From the NCBI GenBank assembly GCA_903878275.1, contig CAIRHC010000007.1, positions 78,482 through 142,481 on the forward strand: a stretch of DNA of 64,000 nt, read 5' to 3'. Below are positions 1,542 through 56,340 of the stretch, piece by piece. Positions within the stretch are counted from its first letter, which is position 1, and each line of letters begins with the position of its first letter. The DNA comes from Candidatus Vogelbacteria bacterium (GTDB lineage: Bacteria > Patescibacteriota > Minisyncoccia > Phycocordibacterales > XYD1-FULL-46-19). Under the pieces are notes generated by a model, which had not been told where the DNA came from, did no database searches, and saw nothing but the letters and a program-made list of their open reading frames with translations. The translations under genes and the position numbers were made by a program.

Positions 1542-1654
1542 TGAATAATACTTGTCCCGTTAAAATTTTACATTTAGTTAAATAAATGGTAGAAATGGAT
1601 GGCGGAAATTAGTTAAGAATAACCAAAAATATTAGAAAATAAAATTTTAATGGG

Positions 1655-1840
1655 ATGAAAAAAGTTAATTTTCAAGATAAAACCGAAAAAGAATTAATGA
1701 AATTGCTGAACGACAAGCGAGAGGCTTTTACAAAATTTAAATTTGGTATTTCTGGTAGTCGAACCAAAAATGTAAAAGAAGGTCGGACATTGCGTCGTGA
1801 AATGGCCTCGATTATTACCGCTCTTGGCAAAACCAAATAA
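1655..1840 (+). CDS. rpmC: 50S ribosomal protein L29
   Basis: 61 aa, KELRE..L..LR-like helical protein; position between L16 and S17. Confidence 0.85.
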
Positions 1841-6665: not shown

Positions 6666-7937
6666 ATGTTGACAGCATTTTTTAATAAACTCAATTTAAT
6701 CTTAAGCGACAAAAGTTTAAGAGGCAGAATCCTGTTTATTGTTGGTGCTTTGGCTGTTTTTCGTTTTTGTGCCGCTATTCCAATTCCTGGTGTTAATGTT
6801 TTACAGCTTGAGAAATTTTTAAGCAACAACCAGTTTTTTGGTTTGTTGAATATTTTGTCTGGTGGTGGTTTGTCCAATCTTTCAATTATGATGCTTGGTG
6901 TCGGGCCGTTTATTACGGCGTCGATTATTATGCAACTTTTGACGATGGTTTCGCCGAAATTGAAGCAACTTTACCACGAAGAAGGACAAATGGGGCGACG
7001 TAAAATTGCCCAATACTCTCGTTTGCTGACTGTTCCGCTTGCTTTTTTGCAAGGTCTCGGTTACTTGGTCTTGCTCGAAAAACAAGGTATTTTGATGAAT
7101 CTAACTAGTTTTGAAAAATTAATAAACATTATCGTCATCGTCGCTGGCTCACTTTTGATTATGTGGATTGGTGAATTGATTACCGAATACGGTATTGGCA
7201 ACGGTGTCTCGATGATTATCTTCTCTGGTATCGTGTCTCGTTTGCCGTCGGCGATGTCTGAACTCGCCGTGACTTTTGAACCATCCCAAGCCCCAATGCT
7301 CCTTGGTTTTGGCGTGCTTATTGTGCTGGTCTTGGCGGGCATTGTTTTTATGACCGAAGCCGAGCGACCAATTCCGATTACTTATGCCAAGCGGGTGCGG
7401 GGGATGAAAGTTTATGGTGGCACTTCCACTTATTTACCGATTCGCGTCAATAATGCTGGTGTGATGCCGATTATCTTTGCTTTGTCGATTATTTTGTTCC
7501 CGCAAATGATTGCCAATTTTTTGGGTGCTTATGGTGGTGCCACCAAAACAGTTGCTGATTTTCTCAATGCCTTTTTTGCCAATCAATGGTTTTACGGCGC
7601 CTCTTATTTCTTGTTGGTCTTTGTCTTTACCTATTTTTATTCCGCGATTACTTTCGATCCAGAATCAATGGCGGTCAATTTGCAGAAAAATGGTGCTTTT
7701 ATCCCTGGTGTTCGTCCTGGTAAACCAACCGAAGAATATGTGACTAAGATTTTGACTCGTTTGACTTTGGTCGGCGCACTTTTCTTGGGTACGGTGGCGT
7801 TGTTGCCGATTATCCTCAAAGGTTTGACCGGTATTGCTACTCTGGCGATTGGCGGAACTAGTATTTTGATCGTCGTCTCGGTGGCGATTGAACTAGTGAA
7901 GCAGATCAATGCGCAGATTTCGATGAGAGAATATTAG
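6666..7937 (+). CDS. secY: preprotein translocase subunit SecY
   Basis: 423 aa multi-TM; position after rplO. Confidence 0.92.
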   Translation: MLTAFFNKLNLILSDKSLRGRILFIVGALAVFRFCAAIPIPGVNVLQLEKFLSNNQFFGLLNILSGGGLSNLSIMMLGVGPFITASIIMQLLTMVSPKLKQLYHEEGQMGRRKIAQYSRLLTVPLAFLQGLGYLVLLEKQGILMNLTSFEKLINIIVIVAGSLLIMWIGELITEYGIGNGVSMIIFSGIVSRLPSAMSELAVTFEPSQAPMLLGFGVLIVLVLAGIVFMTEAERPIPITYAKRVRGMKVYGGTSTYLPIRVNNAGVMPIIFALSIILFPQMIANFLGAYGGATKTVADFLNAFFANQWFYGASYFLLVFVFTYFYSAITFDPESMAVNLQKNGAFIPGVRPGKPTEEYVTKILTRLTLVGALFLGTVALLPIILKGLTGIATLAIGGTSILIVVSVAIELVKQINAQISMREY

Positions 7938-7947
7938 AGAGGGTAGG

Positions 7948-8112
7948 CATTTGAGTGTAACTTTTAAAACCACAGAAAAAGCCCCAGCGGGGCTTTTTCC
8001 TTTGCTTCAAGTCGCCATTTCGCCCTCGTTCGCCAAAGGCGAACAAAAACAAAGGGCGAAAACCATGCTGGCGATAATTCCGCAGAGGTTTTTAAAAGTT
8101 ACACTCAAATGC
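7948..8112. repeat. 25-bp inverted repeat (gcatttgagtgtaacttttaaaacc / ggtttttaaaagttacactcaaatgc) enclosing ~115 bp with nested hairpins
   Basis: arms read directly; the overlapping ORF 7951..8244 is probably spurious. Confidence 0.6.
7976..7998 (+). terminator. rho-independent terminator aaaaagccccagcggggcttttt after secY
   Basis: GC stem + T run. Confidence 0.6.
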
Positions 8113-8140
8113 CTTGTGGTGTGGGAAGGTTGGAGGCTAA

Positions 8141-8168
8141 AACCGCCCGAGGCAAGCCTCGGGCGGTT
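8141..8168. repeat. REP-like palindrome family 1 (aaccgcccgaggc-aa-gcctcgggcggtt)
   Basis: the same or near-identical palindrome recurs at 8879, 9763, 12655 and 19758; related ACCGCCC stems at 3361, 28789 and 39371. Confidence 0.6.
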
Positions 8169-8202
8169 TAGTTATCCACCGTTATCTTTCCAAAAATCTA
8201 GC

Positions 8203-8229
8203 GGGGGGGGGGGCTTTATTTGTTATACT
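8203..8229 (+). promoter_or_regulatory. poly-G(11) tract + extended -10 (TGtTATACT) promoter module
   Basis: G11 at 8203-8213; TATACT at 8224-8229; the module is conserved upstream of 9915 and 19947. Confidence 0.5.
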
Positions 8230-8294
8230 AAAATTAATTATTAGTTTTTTAACAATTAATCAGGTTGGTCTTTGAAAAGGCTGACCAAAAAATA

Positions 8295-8849
8295 ATGAAA
8301 AAATATCTTTTTGTCTCATTAGTTGTCGCTTCTTTTGTAATTTTGCCGGTGTTTGCCTCGGCACAAGCAGTTTCGTATCATCCAGCGGATACGAATAATA
8401 ATTATAAAATAGAGAAGGATGAATTGGTCTCATACGTTATCTCGTTTCTTTCGCCGACCGGTACCCTTGTTGGGGTGACTTTGTCTCAACTTGCACGAGT
8501 TGTTACTTTCTACAATGCTGGAGGTTATAAAGTTTATAATGGTACTAGCGATGGTTTTGCTCCTAGCCCAGCTTTTCACCCGGCTGATACCAATAAAAAC
8601 TATAAAATAGAATTATCCGAGCTGAATGCTTATCGAGAACTTTATAATCAAAAAATGATAACTTTAACTCAAGTATCAAGGGCAATTACTTTTTATAATG
8701 CCGGAGCTTATAAAGTTGATCCTAGTTCATCTGATGGGTTTGCTCCTCGACGAGTTGTGGTTAGCGAATCAGCCAATAGTGCTCAATTGGCAAGTATTGT
8801 GACCGCGCTGTCTTCTCTGTTGAATGAAATTAAGCAACTTGCAAAATAA
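8295..8849 (+). CDS. secreted protein with two ~65-aa tandem repeats (dockerin/EF-hand-like D.N.N.KIE..EL loops) and a conserved C-terminal amphipathic motif
   Basis: MKKYL signal peptide; repeats YHPADTNNNYKIEKDEL / FHPADTNKNYKIELSEL. Confidence 0.6.
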   Translation: MKKYLFVSLVVASFVILPVFASAQAVSYHPADTNNNYKIEKDELVSYVISFLSPTGTLVGVTLSQLARVVTFYNAGGYKVYNGTSDGFAPSPAFHPADTNKNYKIELSELNAYRELYNQKMITLTQVSRAITFYNAGAYKVDPSSSDGFAPRRVVVSESANSAQLASIVTALSSLLNEIKQLAK

Positions 8850-8878
8850 AACTAAATAAGATTAAGAAATGGAAAAAT

Positions 8879-8906
8879 AACCGCCCGAGGCAAGCCTCGG
8901 GCGGTT
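8879..8906. repeat. REP-like palindrome family 1 copy (likely terminator)
   Basis: aaccgcccgaggcaagcctcgggcggtt. Confidence 0.6.
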
Positions 8907-8940
8907 TGTGTTGCCAGAGCATTTTTTGTATACTAGAAAT

Positions 8941-9345
8941 ATGGAGATAACTCACCAACATAAGCTTGAAGTTGCTAAAATTGCCAAAAAATTCCAATTA
9001 AATCTAGTTGTTATTTTTGGTTCTTTTGCTAATGGAAAACAGCGAGAAGATAGCGATTTAGATATTGCCGTTTTGGGCGACAAAGAAATTTCTTTTAATG
9101 AGCAAATCGGCTTAATAAATGAATTATCTTTAATTTTTAATAAAAACATTGACTTGTCGGTGCTAAACCGAGCGAATCCACTACTACTTTTTCAAGTTAG
9201 CCAGAATTCGGTTATTATTTATGGCAGTCACGAAGAATTTTTGAAGTTTAAACTTTACGCTTTCAATGTCTACAATGATTATGCTCCCTATTTTGCGATG
9301 GAAAATAATTTGAATAAAAAAATAATCAATACTTATGCCAATTGA
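8941..9345 (+). CDS. minimal nucleotidyltransferase (MNT; MntA-like antitoxin)
   Basis: GSFANGK....DSDLD NTase motif. Confidence 0.75.
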   Translation: MEITHQHKLEVAKIAKKFQLNLVVIFGSFANGKQREDSDLDIAVLGDKEISFNEQIGLINELSLIFNKNIDLSVLNRANPLLLFQVSQNSVIIYGSHEEFLKFKLYAFNVYNDYAPYFAMENNLNKKIINTYAN

Positions 9346-9757
9346 TAAAAAACTTATAAGTCGAAAAATTACTTTGATCAACGGTGATTTAAAGAGTTTA
9401 AAAGGCTTAAACAAACTTTCACTCAAAATTTATTTAAGCAACGCGGAGTACGAAACACTGGCGGAAAGATATTTAGAAAGAATAATCGGGCGAATGATTG
9501 ATATTAATTATCATATTTTGTCAGAAAAAGAAAATGAAATGCCCACTGATTTTTACAGTTCTTTTGTTCTGTTGGGCAGAAAAAAGTATTTACCGATAAA
9601 ACTAGCTGAAACGATGGCTGGTTCGGCTGGGTTGCGGAATCGTTTGGCTCACGAGTATGATGAAATTGATGCTAAAAAAGTTTTCGGGGCGATCGATTCT
9701 TGCTTAAAAGATGTACCGAAATACCTAAAGAATATTGTTGCATCGCTGGGTTTGTAA
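9335..9757 (+). CDS. HEPN domain protein (DUF86/HepT-like toxin)
   Basis: RNRLAHEYDEID = HEPN R-x4-6-H motif; overlaps the MNT gene by 11 nt. Confidence 0.7.
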   Translation: MPIDKKLISRKITLINGDLKSLKGLNKLSLKIYLSNAEYETLAERYLERIIGRMIDINYHILSEKENEMPTDFYSSFVLLGRKKYLPIKLAETMAGSAGLRNRLAHEYDEIDAKKVFGAIDSCLKDVPKYLKNIVASLGL

Positions 9758-9762
9758 AAAAT

Positions 9763-9790
9763 AACCGCCCGAGGCTTGCCTCGGGCGGTT
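9763..9790. repeat. REP-like palindrome family 1 copy
   Basis: aaccgcccgaggcttgcctcgggcggtt. Confidence 0.6.
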
Positions 9791-9824
9791 TAGTTATCCA
9801 CCATTATTTCCCTAAAATCTATCA

Positions 9825-9851
9825 GGGGGGGGGGGCTTTATCTGATATACT
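9825..9851 (+). promoter_or_regulatory. poly-G(11) + TGaTATACT promoter module
   Basis: G11 at 9825-9835, then ctttatctgatatact. Confidence 0.5.
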
Positions 9852-9914
9852 GAATAAAATATTCGGCATTTTTAAGTTTTTAAAATTTATTATTAATAAC
9901 TAATTACAAAAATA

Positions 9915-12629
9915 ATGAAAAAATATCTTTTAGGTTTTTTACTCGTCGCTTCTTTGGTGGTGCTTCCGTCGGTGTCTCAAGCTGCTGAAGATTTAACGGT
10001 TACTTTGTATGGTTCGGGTTTGACGAAGGGTGTGGTCGGTGAGCCAGTGGTCCAAACCAGTTTTTCGGTCATGGTCACGCCAAACAACGGTGATGTTTAT
10101 TTGTATACGGGTGGGATATTAGGCATTCAACTTATTCAAGATGGAGGTCGCCCAATGCCCGATAATTGTACTTATAGCCAGAGCCTTACGGGGACATTGC
10201 CTATAGTTACGCATCCTCTAGGAAGCCAATATTATAAACTTGCCAGAGGCACCACTGCTCGTTTCAATGCATCTGTTTATTGTAAGATCAGTCAAATGCA
10301 TCCTGGTACTTATTATGGAAAACTTAGTCACGTAACATATAGCAAGACTGATCCTACGACAACAAACAGTTGGTATGATCAAAATATAGAAAACATCAGG
10401 ACACCAGCATCTATAAATATGTATGTTCTCGGCGAGACTGGTCCGTGGATTAGTTTGGCTGTGGCTAAGGCTGTTCAAGGTGGTTATGAGATTGTTTTAA
10501 CAGGAGAAAGATTGGGTCAGGTAAGAAGCGTGTTCCTGAACAACAAAACATACACTCCCTCAGCCAAACCTGGTGACTCTGTAAGTTTTTTTGCCAGTAT
10601 TGCTGATTTACCTGCCGGTAATTATCCTAGTTATGCTAATTTCTCTGGTGGTAAAAGTAATAATTTTTATCTGATGGTTGGAGGTAGTTCGATTGGAATT
10701 ATTTCACCCAATGGAGGGGAAAATTTAAATGAAGGTTTCGATTATCCTATAAGATGGACAAATTATAATATCACCTCGCCAACCGTTAACGTGGGAATTG
10801 AAAGATATGATAGTTCTGGGGCGTCTCAAGGTTCAACAAATATTATCACTGTCCCAACTACACAAAACAATTCCTATCTTTGGAGGGTTAATCCAAATTT
10901 AGCTTGGCAGGGAACACCGGTGAATCCTTCTTCTGGCCCTTTTAAGTATAAAATTTATGTTAATACTCCAGTCGGTGTTTCCCCAGTTGTTTCTGATTAT
11001 AGTGATAATTATTTTACTATAGCTGCATTAAATCCGACAGCCAAAGTCGCTGTCACCTCCCCAAAAGGAGGAGAGTCATTAGCTCAAGGCTCTACTTATA
11101 ATATTACGTGGAATGCTGCTAGTACTGTCACTAAAGTTGCCATCAGTCTTCTTAAGGGTGATATCGTTCGCTCTACTTCTATTATCAATCCGGTATCAGC
11201 TTCGGCGGGAACTTATGCTTGGAAAGTTGGAAACACCGCAGCGGGAATGATGGAGCCTGGGACTGATTATCGAATCAAAGTTTATGGTGTGACCGATGCC
11301 GGTGTCCCTATTGCGGATGCTAACAGTACCAGTAATTATTTCAGTATTGTGGTATCAGCACCAGCGACCGCTCCCACCATTAATAGTATTACTCCAAACA
11401 CCGCACCGATCGGAACTGCTTCTCGGGTAATCATCCGAGGCTTAAATTTCAGTATCGGTGATACTGTGTATCGTTTTGACGGAGAAATTCAAAGTCAACC
11501 ATTCTGTACTATCGGCGTTAACGCCAATGGGAACTACGACTGTCTTCCTGCTAAACTACCCGCTGGTGCGTACAAGCTTGCGGTGGTAAACTCTCGTGGG
11601 ACGAGCAATAAAGTGGATTTTACTTTTACTCCAGCTACGGCTATACCCACTCTTTCTGTGTCGCTAGATCCTTCTAACCCAACCAGACAAAACATCGGTG
11701 CGGGATCTATTGATCAAGTTTTTGTTAGAATTAAAGTTACCGCCGGATCGATGGATGTTAATAATCTTCAAGGAATCCAACTTGGTTCAGATTCTGCTAA
11801 TGCCAATGATTTTATAACCAACATAAAAGTTTTTGATGGGGCAAATCAGTTGGGTGGAACCATCTCTGGGTTGGACAATAATGGAAAAATTTTTTATAAA
11901 TGGACTTATCCTACTGGCGTAATGATTCCAGCTGGTACCTCTAAGATTCTGACCATTGTCGCCGAAGTGAAATCGACAGCTTCTAGCAATAGCAATTTTC
12001 GTTTAGGTATAACTGGCTGGAATTTTGTTTTTCCGGGGACTGCTGTGGAGCCGTTCGGGACACCGATATATGGTAATTATATGACGATAACGGCTTTGAC
12101 AGATCAGCCGACAATCACCGCAGTAGCAATGGCTTTACCAAATTGTTCTCTTGGTGCGATCAACTGTACTTGGCAGGCGGGGACAGATGGATATTATCTT
12201 TGGGGTTACCTTAATCCTAATACTCCGACCGGTAATACCGTCTCGGTTAGTCTTTGTGCCCCAGACGGAATAACCTGTACGATAGCAAAAGATGCTTCAC
12301 TTAAGGATCTCAACAAAGTACCGTCAAAAACTGGAACCGGATTAGGTAACCTGAATTCTGATAAGGCACCGCTTGGTCGTGGTGTTTTAACCAACCCAGA
12401 TCTGGTGGGAGGGAAGAATCCTGTTATCGTCAATAATCAGTCAACCTTAAAAATCTGCCCAACCAATGCCGACGGTTCGCCTGTGACTAGTGGTATTTGC
12501 AAGGTTAGTCCGGTTTTTACCATTACTCCGCCAGCTACCGCTAGTAATTCTCTGGTGAGTCGACAGTTGGCAAGTATTATTACAGTTTTGTCGGATTTAT
12601 TGGCGAAGATTCGGGGATTGGCTTGGTAA
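9915..12629 (+). CDS. large secreted multi-domain surface protein (Ig-like SPNGGE..W..ITW domains, IPT/TIG-like module)
   Basis: 904 aa, signal peptide MKKYLLGFLLVASLVVLPSVSQA; shares a ~260-nt module with the 19947 gene. Confidence 0.7.
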   Translation: MKKYLLGFLLVASLVVLPSVSQAAEDLTVTLYGSGLTKGVVGEPVVQTSFSVMVTPNNGDVYLYTGGILGIQLIQDGGRPMPDNCTYSQSLTGTLPIVTHPLGSQYYKLARGTTARFNASVYCKISQMHPGTYYGKLSHVTYSKTDPTTTNSWYDQNIENIRTPASINMYVLGETGPWISLAVAKAVQGGYEIVLTGERLGQVRSVFLNNKTYTPSAKPGDSVSFFASIADLPAGNYPSYANFSGGKSNNFYLMVGGSSIGIISPNGGENLNEGFDYPIRWTNYNITSPTVNVGIERYDSSGASQGSTNIITVPTTQNNSYLWRVNPNLAWQGTPVNPSSGPFKYKIYVNTPVGVSPVVSDYSDNYFTIAALNPTAKVAVTSPKGGESLAQGSTYNITWNAASTVTKVAISLLKGDIVRSTSIINPVSASAGTYAWKVGNTAAGMMEPGTDYRIKVYGVTDAGVPIADANSTSNYFSIVVSAPATAPTINSITPNTAPIGTASRVIIRGLNFSIGDTVYRFDGEIQSQPFCTIGVNANGNYDCLPAKLPAGAYKLAVVNSRGTSNKVDFTFTPATAIPTLSVSLDPSNPTRQNIGAGSIDQVFVRIKVTAGSMDVNNLQGIQLGSDSANANDFITNIKVFDGANQLGGTISGLDNNGKIFYKWTYPTGVMIPAGTSKILTIVAEVKSTASSNSNFRLGITGWNFVFPGTAVEPFGTPIYGNYMTITALTDQPTITAVAMALPNCSLGAINCTWQAGTDGYYLWGYLNPNTPTGNTVSVSLCAPDGITCTIAKDASLKDLNKVPSKTGTGLGNLNSDKAPLGRGVLTNPDLVGGKNPVIVNNQSTLKICPTNADGSPVTSGICKVSPVFTITPPATASNSLVSRQLASIITVLSDLLAKIRGLAW

Positions 12630-14156: not shown

Positions 14157-14714
14157 ATGATAAAAGAAGAACAAACACTGATTGTCGTCAAACCCGATGG
14201 CGTCAATCGTGGTCTGGTCGGGGAAATCATTGCTCGTTTTGAAAAAGCTAGGTTCAAAATTATAGCGTTGAAGATGGTCGAAGTCGAAAAAACTTTAGTG
14301 CAAAAACACTACAACCACGACGACGCTTGGATGGAAAAAGTCGGCGAGCGGACGCGGGAATTTTACGAAAAACATGGCGAAGACGAGGGTGAGAAAATTG
14401 GCAAGATGACAAATAAAGAAATTGGTAAGATGATTGAAGATTGGAGTTGCGACTATATGACAGACGGTCGAGTAGTAGCGGTGGTCTTGCAAGGTCACAA
14501 TGCCATTCAAACGGTCCGTAAAATGGTTGGCGCCACTTATCCGAGCGAAGCTTTGCCGGGAACCGTCCGTGGTGATTATTCAAACGAATCACCCCTCTCC
14601 GCCAACATCAACAAACGTTGTGCCCACAATATCATTCACGCCTCCGGCAATCCCGAAGAAGCCAAATTCGAAATTGACCTATGGTTTAAAAATGAAGAAA
14701 TTTGCCAGAAGTAA
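14157..14714 (+). CDS. ndk: nucleoside diphosphate kinase with ~45-aa internal insertion
   Basis: TLIVVKPDGV, NIIHAS motifs; start set after the palindrome. Confidence 0.75.
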   Translation: MIKEEQTLIVVKPDGVNRGLVGEIIARFEKARFKIIALKMVEVEKTLVQKHYNHDDAWMEKVGERTREFYEKHGEDEGEKIGKMTNKEIGKMIEDWSCDYMTDGRVVAVVLQGHNAIQTVRKMVGATYPSEALPGTVRGDYSNESPLSANINKRCAHNIIHASGNPEEAKFEIDLWFKNEEICQK

Positions 14715-14740
14715 AAGGTTTGAATTATAATAAAGGGTAG

Positions 14741-14872
14741 ATCGTTTGATATAGTATTTCTAGCACAAATCATTTTTAACGGGAGTTTAATTATTACGAC
14801 TGGCTTTGGTCATATCGTTTAGAACACCCACTTGGATTTCCTCTAGGAAATACTATTATCAAACGATCTAAC
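14741..14872. repeat. ~28-bp imperfect inverted repeat flanking ~75 bp (gtagatcgtttgatatagtatttctag ... ctaggaaatactattatcaaacgatctaac)
   Basis: read directly; possible structured RNA or miniature element. Confidence 0.55.
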
Positions 14873-14931
14873 AAAAAAGTCACTACGGTGGCTTTTTTGC
14901 TTCTTCGCTGGTTTTTCGTTAGACTTAATGT

Positions 14932-23899: not shown

Positions 23900-24166
23900 A
23901 TGAAACATACCGTTTATATTTTATTTAGCCATAAAGATAAAAAACTTTATGTTGGTTGTGCTAAAGATGTAATGGAAAGGCTGAAGAGACACAATGCAGG
24001 GTCGGTGCTTGCGACTAAAAATCGTAGACCTTTTTCTTTAATTTATACTGAAACTTTTACCGATAAAGCCGAAGCTTTTAATCGGGAAAGATTTTTGAAA
24101 AGTTTATGGGGCGCTAGATTAAAGAAAAAGGTCTTGGACGATTTTTTAAAGGCCAAGGCTAAATAA
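23900..24166 (+). CDS. GIY-YIG nuclease-superfamily small protein
   Basis: VYIL.S..DKKLYVG....ERL..HN. Confidence 0.7.
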   Translation: MKHTVYILFSHKDKKLYVGCAKDVMERLKRHNAGSVLATKNRRPFSLIYTETFTDKAEAFNRERFLKSLWGARLKKKVLDDFLKAKAK

Positions 24167-24248: not shown

Positions 24249-24652
24249 GGGGATGATCGGCTTCGACAGGTAGCCTTTCTCTAGTGTGTATGTGGAGACT
24301 CCGAATCCTCCTTAAACATCGGAAAAACAGTCAAATGCCAACGCATCTGACAAGGGACTTGTGGCTTCGCCATATTTCTCTCCAGCCTTGGCTTTAGCCT
24401 AACGCTGGTGCTGGCTTAAATCGCAGTCTGGATGATTTAAGTTGGTATAATAAATTCTGGACTAGCAATTAAACATTTCTCGGTTTAAAAGCGAAACAAA
24501 GAGAATCGACTAATTAAGGTTTTGTTTGTTTAACACTTAGTTAGTTTAAATCCGCTCGGCGATTAGCCGAGCGGGACATAAACAATCTACACATATAGAT
24601 TCACTAAAGTAACCTATTTGCACGGGGGTTCGATTCCCCCCATCTCCACCCA
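24249..24652 (+). ncRNA. ssrA: tmRNA (ssrA)
   Basis: 5' GGGGATGATCGGCTTCGACAGG; 3' tRNA-like GGGGGTTCGATTCCCCC T-arm + CATCTCCACC with a G3:U wobble; internal tag ORF ending ..PALALA-TAA at 24337-24402. Confidence 0.8.
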
Positions 24653-24761: not shown

Positions 24762-25247
24762 TTAAGATGATTTTTTAGAAAACTTGTGATAATGTTCGTT
24801 AAGAAAAGTAATTTCGGTATTTTTATTTCTTAACAAAATTGAGCACTTGTTTTCGTCAGGAGAAATAACTCGATCTAAAACAGAATTATTATCCAAAAAT
24901 TCCACCAAGCAACCAAAATCGCCATCACCAGAAACGAGAATACATTTATCAAACGCTTTGTTATAAAAGTCAGAGACAGTTTTTAAAACCAGTTCGGCAT
25001 CGCAATTACCCTTAATTACTCCTCCAACCGAAACGGTTTGTTTGAAAACTAAAATAAAACCACATTCTTGCAGATGCTCGTAAAATTTGGTTCTCGTTGG
25101 AACGAGACCGATAAAAAGGTAGATATTTGAAGTGTCATATTTTTGCCGAAGCCAACCATAAAATTTTTTGTAATCAATTCCAAAACCAAGTTCTTTGGCT
25201 CCGCGATATAAATTATTGCCGTCAATATAAATGTTGGTTCTAATCAC
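24762..25247 (-). CDS. NYN-domain (LabA/DUF88-like) protein
   Basis: IYIDG.N...LVSGDGDF pattern. Confidence 0.65.
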   Translation of the reverse strand: MIRTNIYIDGNNLYRGAKELGFGIDYKKFYGWLRQKYDTSNIYLFIGLVPTRTKFYEHLQECGFILVFKQTVSVGGVIKGNCDAELVLKTVSDFYNKAFDKCILVSGDGDFGCLVEFLDNNSVLDRVISPDENKCSILLRNKNTEITFLNEHYHKFSKKSS

Positions 25248-49632: not shown

Positions 49633-50841
49633 ATGCTCTTTATTTACAAAACATTAGACAAGGCGGGGACAGAACAATCTGGCAGTATCGAAGCGCCCAA
49701 TATTGACTTGGCGATTAGTTCTCTTCAGCGACGAGGTTTGGTGATCGTCTCGGTCAAGCCAGAAGAAGTGGCTGGGCAGAATTTTTTGAGTCGCTTCAGT
49801 ATCTTTCAGCGTATTTCAAATAAAGACGTCGTGATGCTTTCCCGGCAAATTGCGACAATGTTCGAAGCCAAAGTTTCCGTGATGGCATCTTTTCGTTTGC
49901 TGGCAAATGAGAGTGAAAATCCGATTTTGCGAATGGCTTTGACCGATATCACCGATGACATCAAAGGCGGTATTCCAGTCTCGGCCGCCCTTGCCAAGCA
50001 TCCCAATATTTTCTCTGATTTTTATGTCAATATGGTCCGGGCCGGTGAAGAAACCGGAAAAATGTCTGAAGCGTTTTCTTATTTAGCCGATCACCTTGAT
50101 CGATCCTACGCTTTGTCGTCGCGAGCAAAAAATGCTCTGATTTATCCGGCGTTCGTGGTCGCCTCGTTCGTGGTGGTGATGGTTGTAATGATTATCTTTA
50201 TTATCCCACGCCTATCGGCGGTTTTGATGGAAACGGGTCAAGATTTGCCGATTTATACCAAAGTCGTCATCGGAATTAGTAATTTTGCTTCAAGCTACTG
50301 GCTTCTTTTCTTGGTAGCGTTTGGGGCGATTGGTTTTTATCTTTATCAATATACTTCTACCATAAAAGGCAAAGAAGCCCTGGCACGATTAAAAATCTCT
50401 ATCCCATATGTTGGTAGTTTGTATCGCAAGCTTTATTTAGCCCGTATTGCCGACAACATCAACACGATGCTTTCTAGTGGTATTTCAATGGTGCGGGCTT
50501 TGGAAATTACCGGTGCGGTGGTGGGTAATGAAGTGTACAAAAATATTTTACTCGAATCAGCCGAATCAATTAAGTCGGGAAGTACCGTTTCCGATATTTT
50601 TTCGCGTTATCCAGAAATTCCGGGGGTGATGGTGCAGATGATTAAAGTCGGAGAGGAGACTGGTAAGGTTGGTTTTACTTTGGAGAAATTATCGGTTTTT
50701 TATGAAAGAGAAGTAAATAATGAGGTGGATACTTTGGTGGGCTTGATTGAGCCGGTGATGATCGTGGTCTTGGGCGTCGGCGTGGGTTTACTTTTGACCT
50801 CGGTACTCGTGCCAATTTACAACTTGGCTTCAGCGATGTAG
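49633..50841 (+). CDS. pilC: type IV pilus platform protein PilC (GspF family)
   Basis: 402 aa, two GspF repeats, 3 TM. Confidence 0.85.
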   Translation: MLFIYKTLDKAGTEQSGSIEAPNIDLAISSLQRRGLVIVSVKPEEVAGQNFLSRFSIFQRISNKDVVMLSRQIATMFEAKVSVMASFRLLANESENPILRMALTDITDDIKGGIPVSAALAKHPNIFSDFYVNMVRAGEETGKMSEAFSYLADHLDRSYALSSRAKNALIYPAFVVASFVVVMVVMIIFIIPRLSAVLMETGQDLPIYTKVVIGISNFASSYWLLFLVAFGAIGFYLYQYTSTIKGKEALARLKISIPYVGSLYRKLYLARIADNINTMLSSGISMVRALEITGAVVGNEVYKNILLESAESIKSGSTVSDIFSRYPEIPGVMVQMIKVGEETGKVGFTLEKLSVFYEREVNNEVDTLVGLIEPVMIVVLGVGVGLLLTSVLVPIYNLASAM

Positions 50842-50848
50842 GTGAGAA

Positions 50849-50884
50849 CCCCCAGAATTTGCCAAGGCAAATTCTGGGGGTTCT
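50849..50884 (+). terminator. terminator cccccagaatttgcc-aa-ggcaaattctggggg + T-run
   Basis: perfect 15-bp stem. Confidence 0.7.
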
Positions 50885-50994
50885 GGTTTCCGAGGTCGAA
50901 CCTTAAATCCCCAAAAAGTTTACCCTGTAGTGAAAAATTCTCGTTTTTCTACTACCGGGGGTTCGACTTCAAATTTAAAAAACAAAAAATAATT

Positions 50995-51369
50995 ATGGTC
51001 AAAAAAGAAATAAAATCAAAAGTTACTCTAGAAAGTCTGAATCAGACGGTTGAAAATTTGGCGACCATCACCAATCGTCGTTTTGATGATACTCATAAAT
51101 TGATAGAAAATTTGGCTACCACTATGGCCAAGGGTTTTTCGAATACCAATGAACTGATAGAAAATCTCGCAATTAGCACCAAGGCTGGTTTTGATAAGGT
51201 AGATGAAAGATTAGATAAAGTTGAATCAGATATTACCGTCATAAAATCAGACATTACCGGCATCAAACAACGCCTGACCAGCCTAGACAACCGCCTAGAT
51301 ACGTTTGTCGATCACGAAAAGCGTTTGACCAAAGTGGAGTCCACCTTGAAAATCAGGGTCAAACATTAA
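50995..51369 (+). CDS. coiled-coil protein, paralogue 1 of 3
   Basis: MVKKEIKSKVTLESLNQTVENLA...; C-terminal 30 aa identical to the 55833 copy. Confidence 0.55.
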   Translation: MVKKEIKSKVTLESLNQTVENLATITNRRFDDTHKLIENLATTMAKGFSNTNELIENLAISTKAGFDKVDERLDKVESDITVIKSDITGIKQRLTSLDNRLDTFVDHEKRLTKVESTLKIRVKH

Positions 51370-51621
51370 AATAGCGGGGAATTATCCACCGTTTACTCTT
51401 AAACCTCCTAGGCATTGCAATCTCTCGGTGCTATAATTAAAAAATTAAAAACAACATTATTATTTAATAATCAATTATTTCCGGAAAATTTTGCCAAGCA
51501 AAATTTTCCGGTCAACAAATAAGCTTCCCCGAGGTCGAGTCGTTTCTCGGAGGTCGAACCTTAAATCCCCAAAAAGGTTTGACCTCGGATAATTCGACCT
51601 CGGGGAAACAAAAACATTTCT

Positions 51622-52131
51622 ATGAAAAAATATTTAAATAAATCTAGTGGTTTTACTCTTATTGAACTCCTGGTCGTCATCGCCATCATCGGTATCCTGG
51701 CGGGGATTGTGCTTACTTCGCTATCGAGCGCTAGAAATAAAGCCAATGATGCTAAAATTATTTCACAACTTGGTCAGATCCGTTCAGCTGCCGAATTAAA
51801 TTTTAACCCCAATGATGGTCAAGGCGGCTGGGGCCAGGCAAGCTCTACCCAGACCTGTGGCAATGCGGCCGCACCTACAACACCCCCCACCGTAGCCCCA
51901 CTTTTTAAAAAGCCAGAGTTAGTCAAATTAATTTCTAGTACCGCAGCCCTCTCTAGTGGTGGGACATATTGTAACGTGATCCCTGCCTCGGGTACCGCCC
52001 GAGCTTCTTGGTTATTCGGAGCAACACTTGTTTCAGATACTAGTAAGACCTGGTGCGTTGATTCTTCGGGCAATTCAAAACTAATTACGCCAGGAACAAT
52101 CTTCAACACTGCAATGACTGTTTGCCCATAA
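51622..52131 (+). CDS. type IV pilin (prepilin, class III signal)
   Basis: MKKYLNKSSG|FTLIELLVVIAIIGILAGIV. Confidence 0.88.
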   Translation: MKKYLNKSSGFTLIELLVVIAIIGILAGIVLTSLSSARNKANDAKIISQLGQIRSAAELNFNPNDGQGGWGQASSTQTCGNAAAPTTPPTVAPLFKKPELVKLISSTAALSSGGTYCNVIPASGTARASWLFGATLVSDTSKTWCVDSSGNSKLITPGTIFNTAMTVCP

Positions 52132-52170
52132 ATATAATTTAAAATTATTAACTAACATAATTCAAAATTC

Positions 52171-52671
52171 ATGATTCATAATTCATCTAAAAAAGGTTTC
52201 ACCTTGATCGAGCTTCTTGTTGTCATCGCCATTATCGGTATTTTAGCCGGCATTGTGCTGACTTCACTTAGCACAGCTAGGACCAAGGCTCAAGATGCGC
52301 AGGTTATTTCACAATTAGGTCAAATGCGTTCAGCTGCCGAAATTTATTATTCAGGTACTGGTGGAGGTACGTATGGCGTAGTCGCAAACACTTGCTCGAC
52401 AGGCAGTTCTTTGTTTCTTGATGATACTACTGGTATGGGTAAATTAATTACTTCTACTCTTGCGATTGCTATCGCTGCTAATGTCGATTGTGGTGTTCTT
52501 GCTGGAGGTTCTGCGTGGTCTGTCGCCGCAAAATTGCCCGGCGGTTTATGGTATTGTGTTGACAGTACTGGTGTCTCAAGAGGGAGCACTGCTGCTGGGG
52601 CTGCTTACACTGCTTTGACTGGTGCTGCTAGTGCTGCACATATTTCTGCTGGCGGTTCTGCTTGTAATTAA
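52171..52671 (+). CDS. type IV pilin
   Basis: KKG|FTLIELLVVIAIIGILAGIV; C-terminal Cys pair. Confidence 0.88.
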   Translation: MIHNSSKKGFTLIELLVVIAIIGILAGIVLTSLSTARTKAQDAQVISQLGQMRSAAEIYYSGTGGGTYGVVANTCSTGSSLFLDDTTGMGKLITSTLAIAIAANVDCGVLAGGSAWSVAAKLPGGLWYCVDSTGVSRGSTAAGAAYTALTGAASAAHISAGGSACN

Positions 52672-53547
52672 AGCTGGAGGAGGCTTCGCCTCCTCTCAAA
52701 AACAAGGTGAAACAAGGTGAGGCAAAAACAAGGGGAGGTTGAAACAAGGGGAGGTTGAAACAAGGGGAGGTTGAGCCTCCCCTTTGGCGTTGGTTGTGTT
52801 ATAATATAATCAATGTCTCGTAATATTGAATTAGCGATTGATGAATATTATCACATCTTTAATCATGGCAACGGTGACCGACTAATTTTTATTGACGAAA
52901 AAGATAAAGAGCGATTTGTTAAACTACTCTTTTTAGCTAATGGTTGTAACTCTTTTGATTTTGAAGATCTTTCTTCTGGTCAAGAATTCTCTTTTGATCG
53001 TGGTGAGACACTCGTCGCCATTGGCACGTGGTGTTTAATGGATAATCATTATCATCTATTAATTAAAGAAACCACCGATGGTGGAATTAGTCAGTTTATG
53101 CATCGTCTAGCAACTAGCTATACAATGTATTTCAATCGTCGTCATAGAAAAAGGGGAAGTTTGTTTGAGGGACGGTTTCGAGCAAAACACTTAGGTCAGG
53201 ATGAATATTTAAGACATATCTTTGCTTACACCCATCTCAATCCCGTGAAAATGATTGAGCCAAAATGGAAAGAGGTTGGGTTGAAGAATTTGCCGACAGT
53301 CACTAAATTTTTAAAAGAGTATAGATTTTCTAGCTATCTTGATTATCTCGGCGTTGAGCGAAAAGAAAATAAAATTCTTGATAGAGGAGCTTTTCCGCAA
53401 TACTTTTCAAACCCGGAAGAGATCGAGGTTGAAATGATGGACTGGCTAGATTTCGGTAATTTTTATTAGGGTTAATTTTGGGGTGGGGGTCATCAATATT
53501 ATAACACAAATGATACCCCTAGGGGAGGCTCAACCTCCCGACGGGCA
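52672..53547 (+). mobile_element. IS200/RAYT-like element: HUH Y1 transposase gene flanked by inverted hairpin termini (ggggaggttgagcctcccc ... ttgtgttataatat)
   Basis: left end 52765-52806 and right end 53489-53541 are reverse complements of each other; stuttered partial repeats (aacaaggggaggttga x3) at the left end. Confidence 0.65.
52813..53469 (+). CDS. HUH-superfamily Y1 transposase (IS200-like / REP-associated tyrosine transposase-like)
   Basis: NHYHLL (HxH) and YTHLNPVK (Tyr + NPVK) motifs. Confidence 0.7.
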   Translation: MSRNIELAIDEYYHIFNHGNGDRLIFIDEKDKERFVKLLFLANGCNSFDFEDLSSGQEFSFDRGETLVAIGTWCLMDNHYHLLIKETTDGGISQFMHRLATSYTMYFNRRHRKRGSLFEGRFRAKHLGQDEYLRHIFAYTHLNPVKMIEPKWKEVGLKNLPTVTKFLKEYRFSSYLDYLGVERKENKILDRGAFPQYFSNPEEIEVEMMDWLDFGNFY

Positions 53548-53833
53548 TCAGCGGTAGGGAAGTAGCAAAAAAGCAAAAAGGGGATAACTACTTTTTCTCG
53601 GTTTATTTTTTTGTGGTATCATGCTTAAAGTAATATCAAATTTATTAAAATTATTAGCTTTTAAGAGATGTCCAGAAAATTTTGCTTGGCAAAATTTTCC
53701 GGAAAAGGCTAAAACATCAAAAGACGTTCGCCTAAACAAAAAAAATATGAAAAAAATTAAAGAACTAACCGGAAAAATTTTTTCAGGAAAAAATTTTTCC
53801 GGTCAAGTCCAAAATAATAAAGCCTGCCCCGTA

Positions 53834-54298
53834 GTGAAAAATTCTCGTTTTTCTACTACTGGGGGCTTCACTTTAATCGAATTATTAGTCGTCATTGCCA
53901 TTATCGGTATTTTAGCCGGCATTATTTTGGTTTCCCTAAGTAGCGCCAGGACCAAAGCCAAGACCACTGCCACCTTTGCTTCACTGAATGGTTTAAGACC
54001 AGCGATCGCGATGTGTTGCGGGAATGGGAGTGACTTGGTTGGGGCTGGAACACCACCAGAAACACAAATACCAGCTGTCGGCGGAACAGACATCTGTGAT
54101 GCGGCTAATCCTGTCGGTGTCAATTTACCGACCGCTGCCCAACTTGGGGTTAATATTGTAGAATATACTGCGACGAAAGGTTGTTCTGATCCCGAACCAT
54201 ATTTTTCTGTTCAAACCTCTGGTTCTTCTAATCCTCTTTGTGATAGTGCCGGCACATACACCATCGGTGTCTCAACTTCGTCGTCTCCGTGCAACTAA
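53834..54298 (+). CDS. type IV pilin; GTG start at 53834 preferred, alternative ATG at 53747 would give a 40-aa leader
   Basis: ..KNSRFSTTGG|FTLIELLVVIAIIGILAGII; the sequence between 53747 and 53834 contains a REP-like palindrome. Confidence 0.7.
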   Translation: MKNSRFSTTGGFTLIELLVVIAIIGILAGIILVSLSSARTKAKTTATFASLNGLRPAIAMCCGNGSDLVGAGTPPETQIPAVGGTDICDAANPVGVNLPTAAQLGVNIVEYTATKGCSDPEPYFSVQTSGSSNPLCDSAGTYTIGVSTSSSPCN

Positions 54299-54584
54299 CA
54301 TTAATTAGTAGCGAAGAATTTTATTTTTACCTCAAATTCTTAAGGTTGTGAAAAAGAATAAAGAACTAACCGGAAAAATTTTTTCAGGAAAAAATTTTTC
54401 CGGCCAACCTCATCACCAAAAAGCCTACCCTGATTTCTCGGAGGTCGAACCTTAAATCCCCAAAAAGTTTACCCCGTAGTGAAAAATTCTTATTTTTCTA
54501 CTACTGGGGTTCGACCTCGGAGAATACAACCTCGGGAAAACAGGCTAAAACATCAAAGATGTTCGCCTAAACAAAAACATTTTT

Positions 54585-55163
54585 ATGAAAAAATATTTAC
54601 AACCCACAACCCAGAAACTACAACTTAGCCGTGGCTTCACCTTAATAGAGCTTCTGGTTGTCATCGCCATTATCGGTATTTTGGCGGGCATTGTCCTGAC
54701 TTCGCTTTCTAGCGCTCGAGCAAAAGCCAAAGATTCCGCCCTTATCTCTGGCTTGTCTGGTTTAAGATCGCAGATTGAGACGGTGGCTAGTGATAATTAT
54801 GGACCAATAGTTGGAGCTTGGGGAGTTAAATCGGACGGCACAGGGACAACTGGTTCTAAGGGTGTAACGGATTCGTCTGTTTGTTCTACTTATGCTAGTA
54901 CTGATGGTGGCGTAGTTTATAAAATGATGAAAGATCTAGCCAAACAATCTGGTAATAACGTCGTTTGTGCGGTGGGAGTTGGTGGAAGAACCTGGGTAAT
55001 TTTTGGAGTTTTGCCTAGTACCGCTAATCCTAATGACCCTACTACTGCTGATTATTATTGTTATGATAGTTCTGGTGGTTCTAAAAAACAGGTCGGTTTC
55101 CCGGTGAATGTAGTTGGTGCTGGAGTGGAAAATGTCAATCTTGATGTAAAATGTCAGTCATAG
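54585..55163 (+). CDS. type IV pilin
   Basis: ..LQLSRG|FTLIELLVVIAIIGILAGIV. Confidence 0.88.
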   Translation: MKKYLQPTTQKLQLSRGFTLIELLVVIAIIGILAGIVLTSLSSARAKAKDSALISGLSGLRSQIETVASDNYGPIVGAWGVKSDGTGTTGSKGVTDSSVCSTYASTDGGVVYKMMKDLAKQSGNNVVCAVGVGGRTWVIFGVLPSTANPNDPTTADYYCYDSSGGSKKQVGFPVNVVGAGVENVNLDVKCQS

Positions 55164-55412
55164 ACATTATTTAAATTTAAAAAAATTATCCCCGGAATTT
55201 TTGCTAGCAAAAATTCCGGGGATAATTCTCAAAACTAAATTTCCTGAAAATTTTAAAAATCGGCTGGCGCAACCGCTCGGATTTGCCAGGGCAAATCCGA
55301 GCGGTTGCCACTTTTCCTCTCTGCGAACCTCCAAACCAGTGGATAACTCCGTATGTAATCTTTTTTTTATATGTTATTATTTAGACAATGGTGAAAAAGA
55401 GAAATCATAATT

Positions 55413-55754
55413 ATGATTAAAAAAGAAATAAAACCAAAAGTTACTCTAGAAAGTATTAATAATACGATTGAGCACTTGGCTATAAGTGTGGCAAATGGTT
55501 TTGCTGCCGTCGATGAAAGATTTAATAAGGTAGATGAAAGATTTGAGCAGGTAGATAAAAGATTCGATAAGGTTGAAAACGATATTGTCGTGATAAAAAA
55601 AGACTTAAATATCGTCAAGACCGATGTCGCTGTCCTAAAGACCGACTTGCGAAAATTAGACCACAAGATTGGTCTGGTAGATAAAAGAAATCGCGAAGAT
55701 ATCGACGCTCTCGCTTCCGATATGGTGTTGGTCAAGAAAAAAGTGTCTTTATGA
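55413..55754 (+). CDS. coiled-coil protein, paralogue 2
   Basis: MIKKEIKPKVTLE..; FNKVDERFEQVDKRFDKVE heptads. Confidence 0.55.
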   Translation: MIKKEIKPKVTLESINNTIEHLAISVANGFAAVDERFNKVDERFEQVDKRFDKVENDIVVIKKDLNIVKTDVAVLKTDLRKLDHKIGLVDKRNREDIDALASDMVLVKKKVSL

Positions 55755-55832
55755 GTTTGAACCTTACCGGAAATTTTGACTAGTCAAAATTTCCGGTAAG
55801 GTTCCCCAAACATTTTTAAAATAAACATAATT

Positions 55833-56174
55833 ATGATTAAAAAAGAAATAAAACCAAAAGTTACCTTGGAAGGTCTGAACCAGACGGTTGAGAAATTGGC
55901 TACTAGTATGATCAAGGGTTTTGCTCATACTCACGAGCTGATCGAAAATCTGGCGATCAGCACCAAGGCTGGTTTTGATAAAGTAGACGAAAGATTTGAT
56001 AAAGTGGATGAAAGATTAGATAAAGTGGAGGGGAGATTAGGTAAGGTTGAAAACGACATCACTGGCATCAAACAACGCCTGACCAGCCTAGACAACCGTC
56101 TAGACACTTTTGTCGATCACGAAAAGCGTTTGACCAAAGTCGAATCAGCCTTGAAAATTAGAGTCAAACATTAA
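55833..56174 (+). CDS. coiled-coil protein, paralogue 3
   Basis: MIKKEIKPKVTLE..; C-terminus identical to paralogue 1. Confidence 0.55.
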   Translation: MIKKEIKPKVTLEGLNQTVEKLATSMIKGFAHTHELIENLAISTKAGFDKVDERFDKVDERLDKVEGRLGKVENDITGIKQRLTSLDNRLDTFVDHEKRLTKVESALKIRVKH

Positions 56175-56340
56175 CAAAATTCCCCGAGGTCGAACCTTTT
56201 TGGGGATTTAAGGTTCGACCTCGGCAAGATCCCCCAATATTTTTAATAAAAAATAACCATTTTAAAAATTAATTTCAAGGCTAAAACATTTCAACCCAAA
56301 ACGATTCTCGTTTGACTACGAAATGTTCGCCTAAATCAAG

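Follow-up and report, generated by a model that had tools for sequence, protein, structure and literature searches.

We analyzed a 64,000-nucleotide stretch of genomic DNA (the window; positions 78,482 to 142,481 of contig CAIRHC010000007.1, assembly GCA_903878275.1) whose SecY belongs to the Paceibacteria of the Candidate Phyla Radiation (CPR), the nearest named relatives being Candidatus Vogelbacteria (72-74% identity). In gene order, a ribosomal-protein cluster ending in secY is followed by a first long stem-loop, W1 (7945-8114), a block of accessory genes, adk, map and ndk, and a second stem-loop, W2 (14738-14870), 3′ of which lie a small membrane-protein gene and then an RNase J-type beta-CASP gene. 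W1, our main subject, is a real, conserved, single-copy structured element around the secY terminator, carried by a few uncultured Paceibacteria lineages. Related loci are designated by L numbers. The closest relative with sequence past secY, identified by protein search and contig look-up, is L161 (87% SecY identity); L081, also at 87%, stops at the end of secY, and the other genome-collection and metagenome matches with downstream sequence have at most 74% SecY identity.

The left arm of W1 begins 8 nt past the secY stop codon, and the two arms, 25 nt long and 100% complementary, enclose 120 nt, which makes W1 the longest spaced inverted repeat of the window. Its parts and immediate neighbors are as follows.

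6666-7937, plus strand: secY, last gene of the ribosomal-protein (spc-like) cluster (open reading frame [ORF] list; Pfam SecY, E = 2.7e-104)
7945-7969, plus strand: 5′ (left) arm of helix P1, one half of the 25-nt perfect inverted repeat; homologous by position to the stop-to-terminator spacer in L085, L162 and L168
7975-7999, both strands: P2 hairpin, GAAAAAGCCCC-AGC-GGGGCTTTTTC, with A-tract and U-tract; scored as a terminator on either strand and kept in L161, L001, L086, L087, L170 and L085/L162
7999-8088, plus strand: P3 domain, an outer stem (7999-8005/8082-8088) enclosing three nested stems (fold, alignment and compensatory pairs)
8090-8114, plus strand: 3′ (right) arm of P1, from the repeat search; the pair A7954-T8105 is G-C in L161
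8115-8137, plus strand: G/U-rich 3′ flank TGTGGTGTGGGAAGGTTGGAG, shared with L161 in the pairwise alignment; the conserved block stops here
8140-8169, both strands: second terminator-like hairpin with a 14-bp perfect stem, 3′ of W1; window and L161 diverge from here onward

The interior is predicted to fold into a three-way junction with P2 and P3 as its branches. By sequence scoring, P2 is a predicted intrinsic terminator, with a G+C-rich stem-loop and a U-tract located 3′ of a stop codon. The nested stems of P3 (8011-8017/8069-8075, 8018-8026/8053-8061 and 8028-8034/8038-8044) reuse the words TCGCC/GGCGA, and the 3′ side of the domain contains a conserved, asymmetric, A/C-rich internal loop, AAAACCAUGC (8059-8068), whose ACC-N-GC pattern is present also in L001, L087, L170 and L097. 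The secY strand of W1 folds with a predicted energy of -89 kcal/mol, compared with -45.9 +/- 4.2 kcal/mol for shuffled sequences (z = -10.3), and the complementary strand with -91 kcal/mol (z = -11.0). A preliminary description of the window had recognized perfect 25-bp arms after secY, placing the element at 7948-8112 with an interior of ~115 bp that held a terminator hairpin and a further nested stem. The arms are indeed there, far beyond chance expectation, and the two interior structures correspond to P2, scored on both strands, and P3; the positions given deviate by about 3 nt, and the interior measures 120 nt.

Promoter scoring, with the flanks read in the relatives as well, returned no credible sigma-70 promoter within or beside W1 on either strand, and no promoter-like site on either strand of the interior (7970-8089). 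As no other promoter is evident, read-through from secY is the sole evident transcription of the element. Searched against Rfam 15 at the gathering threshold, the whole window yielded only transfer-messenger RNA (tmRNA) and 2 tRNAs, and scans at E <= 10 around W1, W2 and three orthologous loci gave matches at chance level. The best matches near W1, to the Phe leader (27 bits) and the Thr leader (24 bits; threshold 55), reflect the combination of a hairpin with a terminator. W1 contains no conserved small ORF; a leader peptide or toxin encoded by a 19-codon minus-strand ORF (MVFALCFCSPLANEGEMAT) was rejected, its stop codon being gone in L161 and no ATG being present in L001 and L087.

Conservation, homologues and origin of W1

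From the secY stop codon to position 8137 (about 200 nt), the window and L161 are 94-95% identical, and this conservation sets in sharply at the element. It lies far above the neutral level: secY itself is 81% identical in DNA sequence, with 53% identity at four-fold degenerate sites and 55-65% at third positions of the last 200 nt, whereas adk is 61% identical and the remaining spacers are unalignable. Likewise, L001 and L086 share 91% identity over the 78 nt available, compared with 44% at four-fold sites. Between the window and L161, the arms show one compensatory change (A7954-T8105 to G-C), and 3/3 single-sided stem changes (C8034T, T8075C and C8113T) interconvert G-C and G.U pairs when read on the secY-sense strand. 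Between clades, the arm sequences are unrelated and their complementarity is kept, the pairing by member being 25/25, 26 with one G.U, 21/21, 19/19, 19/19, 21 with one mismatch, and 26 with two G.U; in the window, L087, L097, L005 and L172, every arm pair is Watson-Crick.

With a covariance model, R1, made from the window, L001 and L087, we searched about 1.5 Mb of Paceibacteria loci. In a six-sequence R1 alignment, from which one contaminating reverse-strand row was taken out, 91% of cells are paired versus 40-53% with the partners slid, and 53/60 pairs show changes on both sides, counts that are fitted to the model and lean towards structure. Compensatory pairs thus exceed the controls, as expected of a conserved structured RNA, a measure that does not separate RNA pairing from DNA-level homogenization of the repeat.

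A W1-type module lies directly after secY in about ten related genomes, amounting to about 7 full-length sequences. Full-length R1 matches were obtained in the window, L161, L001 and L087, all directly 3′ of secY and on the secY strand; the copies in L086 and L170/L171 are cut by contig ends, and partial versions consisting of the left spacer and P2 only occur in L085 and L162-L164. With filters off, R1 further detected the element in L097 (41 bits on the secY strand vs 15 on the other), L005 (42 bits on the strand opposite secY vs 11 on the secY strand) and L003 (32 bits, opposite strand), and L173 has the same arrangement as L003, that is, an interior inverted relative to secY. L097, L003, L005 and L173 form one clade with L172 and L175 (SecY 83-94% identical), in which the interior occurs in either orientation or is reduced to only a plain 19-bp hairpin (L172) or the terminator alone (L175/L176). 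In the window's own clade, all six members share one orientation. The inversion is not an assembly artefact, since three independent assemblies that have diverged from one another all show it and assembly k-mers exceed the arms in length. Independent assemblies of L170, L171 and further samples with the same contig end at an identical base 104 nt past secY, inside the element, which suggests a structural polymorphism or an obstacle to assembly; L177/L178, checked for a complete copy of the L170 type, are without the element. In L161, the 3′ half of P3 recurs in decayed form (CTGGCGACAATTCCGCAAG, L161:5560-5600) about 90 nt 3′ of the element, which suggests a local duplication. Viral contigs scanned for the W1 arm and core gave 0 matches, and a literature search found nothing on such elements in CPR bacteria.

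The simpler relatives indicate how the element came about. Loci lacking P3 and the right arm (L085, L162 and L168) keep a homologue of the left arm between the stop codon and P2, which makes the left arm the spacer inherited from the ancestor; the right arm is derived from it on site, as an inverted copy. By the same token, P2 is the ancestral secY terminator, because L085, L162, L168 and L175 have the left spacer and P2 without the rest. L003 and L173 have very similar interiors (about 70-90%) and wholly different arm pairs; judged from sequence, this wholesale arm replacement and the reuse of TCGCC/GGCGA within P3 fit template-switch (quasi-palindrome) mutation as the putative generator. Such a mutation accounts for the birth of W1 but not for its 95% conservation.

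Candidate roles of W1

At just short of even confidence, we lean towards W1 being an RNA-level module of the secY 3′ untranslated region (UTR), in which a terminator and a long duplex end or process transcripts between the ribosomal-protein operon and the downstream genes. Some Paceibacteria lineages would have gained P3 and the inverted spacer copy, so that terminator and P3 became enclosed by a P1 duplex of 19-26 bp. P2 would stop most secY transcripts; those reading through would include P3 and the right arm and could then fold P1 around P2 and P3. RNase III takes substrates of roughly 20 bp or more of near-perfect double-stranded RNA, and P1, a predicted 25-bp duplex in the window, falls within that length. 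As a long, near-perfect RNA duplex, P1 is thus a candidate substrate of double-strand-specific RNases such as RNase III, and cleavage would give the ribosomal-operon mRNA its 3′ end and shield it from what lies downstream, namely adk in the relatives and a 4.6-kb accessory block in the window. Because the helices re-form from the complementary strand and P2 is predicted to act in both directions, inversion of the interior would be tolerated, as in the clade of L003, L005 and L173, where recombination between the arms may have inverted it without functional loss.

The nearest known counterparts of P2 are bidirectional intrinsic terminators, with which it shares a G+C stem between an A-tract and a U-tract directly past a stop codon, and P2 is all that the simplest relatives (L085, L162 and L175) have of the module. 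Unlike such terminators, it shares a three-way junction, closed by 25 bp of duplex, with a second conserved hairpin, and the whole W1 block is conserved rather than the hairpin alone.

Several observations weigh against an RNA module of the secY 3′ UTR. Transcription past P2 is an assumption, and efficient termination there would make P1 RNA rare; the family is small, at about 7 full-length sequences; and perfect Watson-Crick arms fit DNA-level homogenization as well as selection on RNA. A purely structural role also leaves the sequence conservation of about 95% in loops and arms between the window and L161 without explanation, a level that suggests additional, sequence-specific partners. As to the strand, three points speak for the secY-sense one: the single-sided stem changes that separate L161 from the window are wobble-compatible, the L173 arms have two G.U pairs on that strand, and no other promoter is evident. 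Against it, folding is more stable in 8/8 members, by 0.5-15 kcal/mol, for the strand that has P3 ahead of P2; this would suit a small RNA (sRNA) ending at P2 but may be a composition effect, the loops of the other strand being A-rich and their U-rich counterparts pairing promiscuously. Wobble counts, taken in each strand's own fold, stand at 12 vs 12 if the alternative helix of the window is counted and at 11 vs 5 in favor of the secY-sense strand if it is left out. Strand assignments by folding energy, by wobble pairs and by A.C counts conflict.

First in line among the alternatives, although unlikely, is that W1 is an independent sRNA gene that shares the bidirectional P2 with secY, being transcribed in the order arm, P3, P2 and ending at the P2 U-tract, or else an sRNA processed from the 3′ UTR of the secY transcript. 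The independent gene would run antisense and convergent to secY in the window and in the same direction as secY in L003/L005/L173. Conservation between the window and L161 is at the level of housekeeping non-coding RNAs (ncRNAs), loops included, the folding asymmetry described above (up to 15 kcal/mol) favors the required strand, sRNAs usually carry their terminator at the 3′ end, W2 shows that the genome has stand-alone structured RNAs with long closing stems, and L005 has a TATACT 9 nt beyond the arm, antisense to secY. However, a conserved promoter next to W1 was found on neither strand, no Rfam family matches, and the strong terminator-like hairpin at 8140-8169 in the window would, on the minus strand, sit just upstream of the required antisense start. 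An RNA ending at P2 would moreover hold one arm only, which leaves the conserved complementarity of the arms unexplained, and the asymmetry itself can be a composition effect.

Rather improbable, in our judgement, is a role at the DNA level, in which the arms are recombination sites bounding an invertible terminator cassette, or the repeat is a hotspot of recombination or insertion that marks the secY-adk junction. The perfect Watson-Crick arms agree with this, as does a clade of 83-88% SecY identity in which L097 has the interior on the secY strand and L003, L005 and L173 have it inverted. The junction is also variable. In L161, adk follows the W1 homologue after about 200 nt (spacer L161:5494-5697) without the accessory genes, from which it follows that the 4.6-kb block of the window (8265-12629), encoding a secreted hypothetical protein, an MNT/HepT toxin-antitoxin pair and a 904-aa Ig-like surface protein, is an insertion 3′ of W1; other cargo at this accessory-gene hotspot is present in L083-L087, L162 (a 1242-aa beta-helix protein) and L167 (DUF1189). 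Known invertons are invertible promoter segments between inverted repeats, such as fimS and the Bacteroides invertons, and W1 resembles them in having inverted repeats around a short non-coding segment near variable surface-protein genes and in occurring in both orientations among related genomes. In contrast to invertons, its interior is devoid of a promoter and P2 would terminate both ways, so inversion would change little; Pfam/NCBIfam annotation of nearly all window ORFs of 130 aa or more revealed no integrase, invertase or other site-specific recombinase; and the sole transposase-like gene is related to REP-associated tyrosine transposases (RAYTs; REP, repetitive extragenic palindrome), lies 45 kb away and is associated with unrelated repeats. 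In addition, the six members of the window's clade share one orientation, the arm sequences vary between genomes, unlike the site of a recombinase, and the inversion separates genomes with saturated synonymous sites and may be a single ancient event.

There is a slim chance that W1 represents a previously undescribed kind of switch or RNA, in either of two versions that we weigh together. As a switch, inversion of the cassette or formation of the long duplex may gate read-through from the ribosomal operon into a hypervariable slot for surface-protein and toxin-antitoxin genes. As an RNA, W1 may serve CPR bacteria as a new housekeeping ncRNA restricted to certain lineages; sequence-specific partners would then account for the 95% conservation seen in loops and arms.

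Slimmer still is the prospect that W1 is without function and arose as a side effect of template switching at a terminator hairpin, with an inverted duplication of the spacer that made the arms and keeps homogenizing them. The right arm resembles a derived inverted copy of the ancestral spacer, the nested stems of P3 reuse TCGCC/GGCGA, the arms are swapped wholesale between L003 and L173 around interiors that are about 70-90% alike, and many other Paceibacteria have unrelated long inverted repeats in the same spacer. What such a palindrome does not explain is the 94-95% identity of the whole block, including loops and 3′ flank, against a background of saturated neutral divergence, nor its sharp boundaries; template switching is probably the origin of W1 rather than the reason for its persistence.

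The faintest prospect among these is that of a miniature inverted-repeat transposable element (MITE), which the preliminary description had offered beside a structured RNA, or of a palindromic unit of the REPIN (paired REP sequences), ERIC (enterobacterial repetitive intergenic consensus) or Correia type, inserted behind secY. At about 170 bp and with 25-nt terminal inverted repeats, W1 does resemble one; these genomes harbor true MITE-like elements, those of the TCCCGTTAGAAAT family, with a copy in the window (1555-1655), which also has a RAYT-like gene; and the decayed P3 half-copy of L161 can be read as a second copy. Yet the W1 arm has zero further copies in the 64-kb window with <=3 mismatches allowed (chance expectation 0), about 1.5 Mb of related loci contain the element only after secY, an orthologous location across clades, and the flanks (...AGAGGGT / TGTGGTG...) show no target-site duplication. 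The arms differ in every genome, the left one is homologous to host spacer in relatives without a right arm and was thus made in place, and viral contigs provide no matches. The Correia elements of Neisseria, enterobacterial ERIC sequences (also called intergenic repeat units, IRUs), REP/BIME (bacterial interspersed mosaic element) sequences and REPINs are palindromic intergenic units that are co-transcribed with flanking genes and for which roles in termination, mRNA stability and RNase III processing have been proposed. W1 is like them in its size class (100-170 bp), in ending in inverted repeats of ~25 nt able to form a long hairpin in the mRNA, and in its placement at operon ends in either orientation; they differ in that they move, occur in many copies with a common consensus and come with target duplications or a cognate RAYT, whereas W1 is single-copy at one fixed locus, has no duplication and has different arms in each genome. 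REP sequences and REPINs in particular are short, multi-copy palindromic units, often with a 5′ GTAG, arranged as inverted doublets, with matching repeats flanking the cognate RAYT gene; in W1, GTAG precedes the left arm only, and the arms are unlike the GGGAGGTTGAGCCTCCCCT repeats that flank the RAYT-like gene. Retrons and integron attC sites were discarded, as no reverse transcriptase or integrase was found and the core-site motifs misfit.

Several other repeats were recorded along the way. The RAYT-like gene (52813-53469) encodes a Y1 transposase that matches NCBIfam REP_Tyr_transpos with E = 4.5e-11, below the curated cut-off, and has the HUH motif HYH and the tyrosine motif YTHLNP; it is flanked at 52765-52783 and 53521-53539 by a perfectly inverted pair of hairpins, unlike the W1 arms, and preceded on its 5′ side by 3 tandem copies of GAAACAAGGGGAGGTT. 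It lies within a type IV pilin/pilus locus (50800-56300) with repeated intergenic modules in both orientations (e.g., GAGGTCGAACCTTAAATCCCCAAAAAG and CCGTAGTGAAAAATTCTCGTTTTTCTACTAC), perfect 38-46 bp palindromes of the CCGGAAAATTTTG type at 50845, 51477, 53668, 53768, 54369, 55184, 55269 and 55759, and duplicated pilin and coiled-coil genes. The MITE-like family, with TCCCGTTA(G/A)AAAT terminal inverted repeats, is represented at window 1555-1655 and in L132, L121, L126, L010 and L094. Comparison of L132 with L125/L127 captured a filled site just after secY in L132 (gATGAA|TCCCGTTAGAAAT...ATTTCTAACGGG|ATGAAacggg, with ATGAA duplicated) and the empty site gATGAAACGGG in L125; the insertion falls exactly at a start codon, and its hairpin would join the upstream stop codon and the displaced start codon. 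Elsewhere in the Paceibacteria, the secY-adk spacer contains unrelated, low-complexity, stop-codon-rich inverted repeats (tagttagtaa, aagtaaaaagta and ctagcttctag), carried by L004, L037, L091, L013/L021/L118-L122, L134, L135/L018 and L032/L089, which often place the adk -10 box in their loop. Within the window, an inverted repeat of 20 nt (24026-24045 / 24115-24134; 95% complementary, 69-nt interior) lies just past smpB, about 115 nt 5′ of the tmRNA gene (24249-24651). Ahead of the accessory block, an 11-G run (8203-8213) directly precedes an extended -10 box (TGTTATACT, 8221-8229) upstream of the signal-peptide protein gene (ATG at 8297); it could mediate slipped-strand phase variation or be a sequencing or assembly artefact.

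The stem-loop upstream of the RNase J gene

The second stem-loop, W2, comprises the following features.

14702-14731, plus strand: promoter-like site TTGCCA-18-TATAAT (11/12 by promoter scoring), its TATAAT/TATACT kept in orthologues
14738-14870, plus strand: W2, in which a large internal loop separates a long closing stem from an apical stem whose GGG/CCC is invariant (fold, orthologues and covariation)
14872-14899, plus strand: terminator hairpin with U-tract, 33 nt 5′ of the next start codon (14932); as helix 6 of the alignment, it has both-side changes at 13/13 pairs

The arms (14738-14760 / 14847-14870) are 23/24 nt long with a one-base bulge, and 86 nt lie between them. The preliminary description, which put this stem-loop at 14741-14872 with arms of ~28 bp around ~75 bp, was right about its existence, which folding bears out (z = -8.3), and wrong about these dimensions. 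A covariance model from the window and three orthologues, R2, matched one plus-strand copy per locus in 33 Paceibacteria loci, for example at L165:6588-6769, L167:8259-8439, L169:7420-7601 and L002:13936-14112 (corresponding to window 14702-14905). Where the flanks are identifiable, ndk lies upstream and the RNase J gene downstream, and in many loci 25-60 nt separate the end of the match from the RNase J start, or from a small DUF2238-like gene 5′ of it. In the alignment, 92.7% of cells are paired compared with 68% in shuffled controls, 44/50 pairs show changes on both sides, and covariation scores 0.559, against 0.188 for shuffled and about 0.1 for slid controls; on none of these measures did a shuffle (0/500) come up to the alignment. 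Many G.U pairs and much better folding of the plus strand fix the strand of W2.

W1 and W2 had been proposed to be of similar build, as copies of a MITE or as members of a family of structured ncRNAs. This does not hold: R1 has no match to W2 and R2 none to W1, so the two do not belong to one family, and they occupy separate loci and are built differently inside, as a terminator-bearing three-way junction versus a rod with a large internal loop and an external terminator. Of the two readings offered, that of structured RNA is supported for both, with conservation of structure and sequence in relatives, found by the covariance-model searches, and compensatory change at both loci; two candidate RNA families, unrelated to each other and neither of them in Rfam, are present in the window.

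From the analysis of fold, covariation and position, W2 is probably a structured, terminator-ended 5′ leader of the RNase J operon, or an sRNA. Autoregulatory ribonuclease leaders are exemplified by the rne 5′ UTR, the rnc and pnp leaders and rny. Like these, W2 is a conserved structured RNA directly 5′ of a ribonuclease gene, with a terminator-like end as in an attenuating or cleavable leader. Its outline also allows a 6S-like sRNA. 6S RNA consists of a closing stem, a large central bubble and a terminal stem, binds the RNA polymerase holoenzyme and templates product RNA; W2 likewise has a long closing stem, a large two-sided internal loop, which in the consensus sets an unpaired 5′ strand of about 20 nt opposite a strand of 12-18 nt between two conserved helices, and an apical stem. 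Unlike 6S RNA, however, W2 is shorter than is typical (about 133 nt) and abuts the RNase J gene, and Rfam searches of W2 and its orthologues at E <= 10 found no match, RF00013 (6S) and rne5 included. As a further comparator for a self-regulating ribonuclease gene, RNase Y is described as autoregulated (PMC10303841).

The left arms of both stem-loops are preceded by AGGGTAG and share the motif GGTAG-N(2-6)-TTTGR (7942-7954 and 14736-14749), which recurs at 25118, 28734, 50313 and 54416; these 6 occurrences compare with 1.2 expected, 0/100 shuffles reach 6, and none of the other four sites is a repeat element. A similar start (TAGGTTGTTTGG) is seen in L005 and the W2 orthologues, and the motif may reflect the context of a transcription start or processing site.

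CPR bacteria (Patescibacteria) are uncultured, and their non-coding RNA repertoire is almost uncharted; the locus described here adds two candidate RNA families absent from Rfam. The lineage-restricted W1 shows how a plain terminator can grow into a conserved three-helix module, whose arms let it flip without being lost, and it marks a hotspot for the insertion of accessory genes behind the ribosomal-protein operon. W2, which is widespread in Paceibacteria, is a candidate autoregulatory ribonuclease leader or 6S-like RNA in a group where neither is known.

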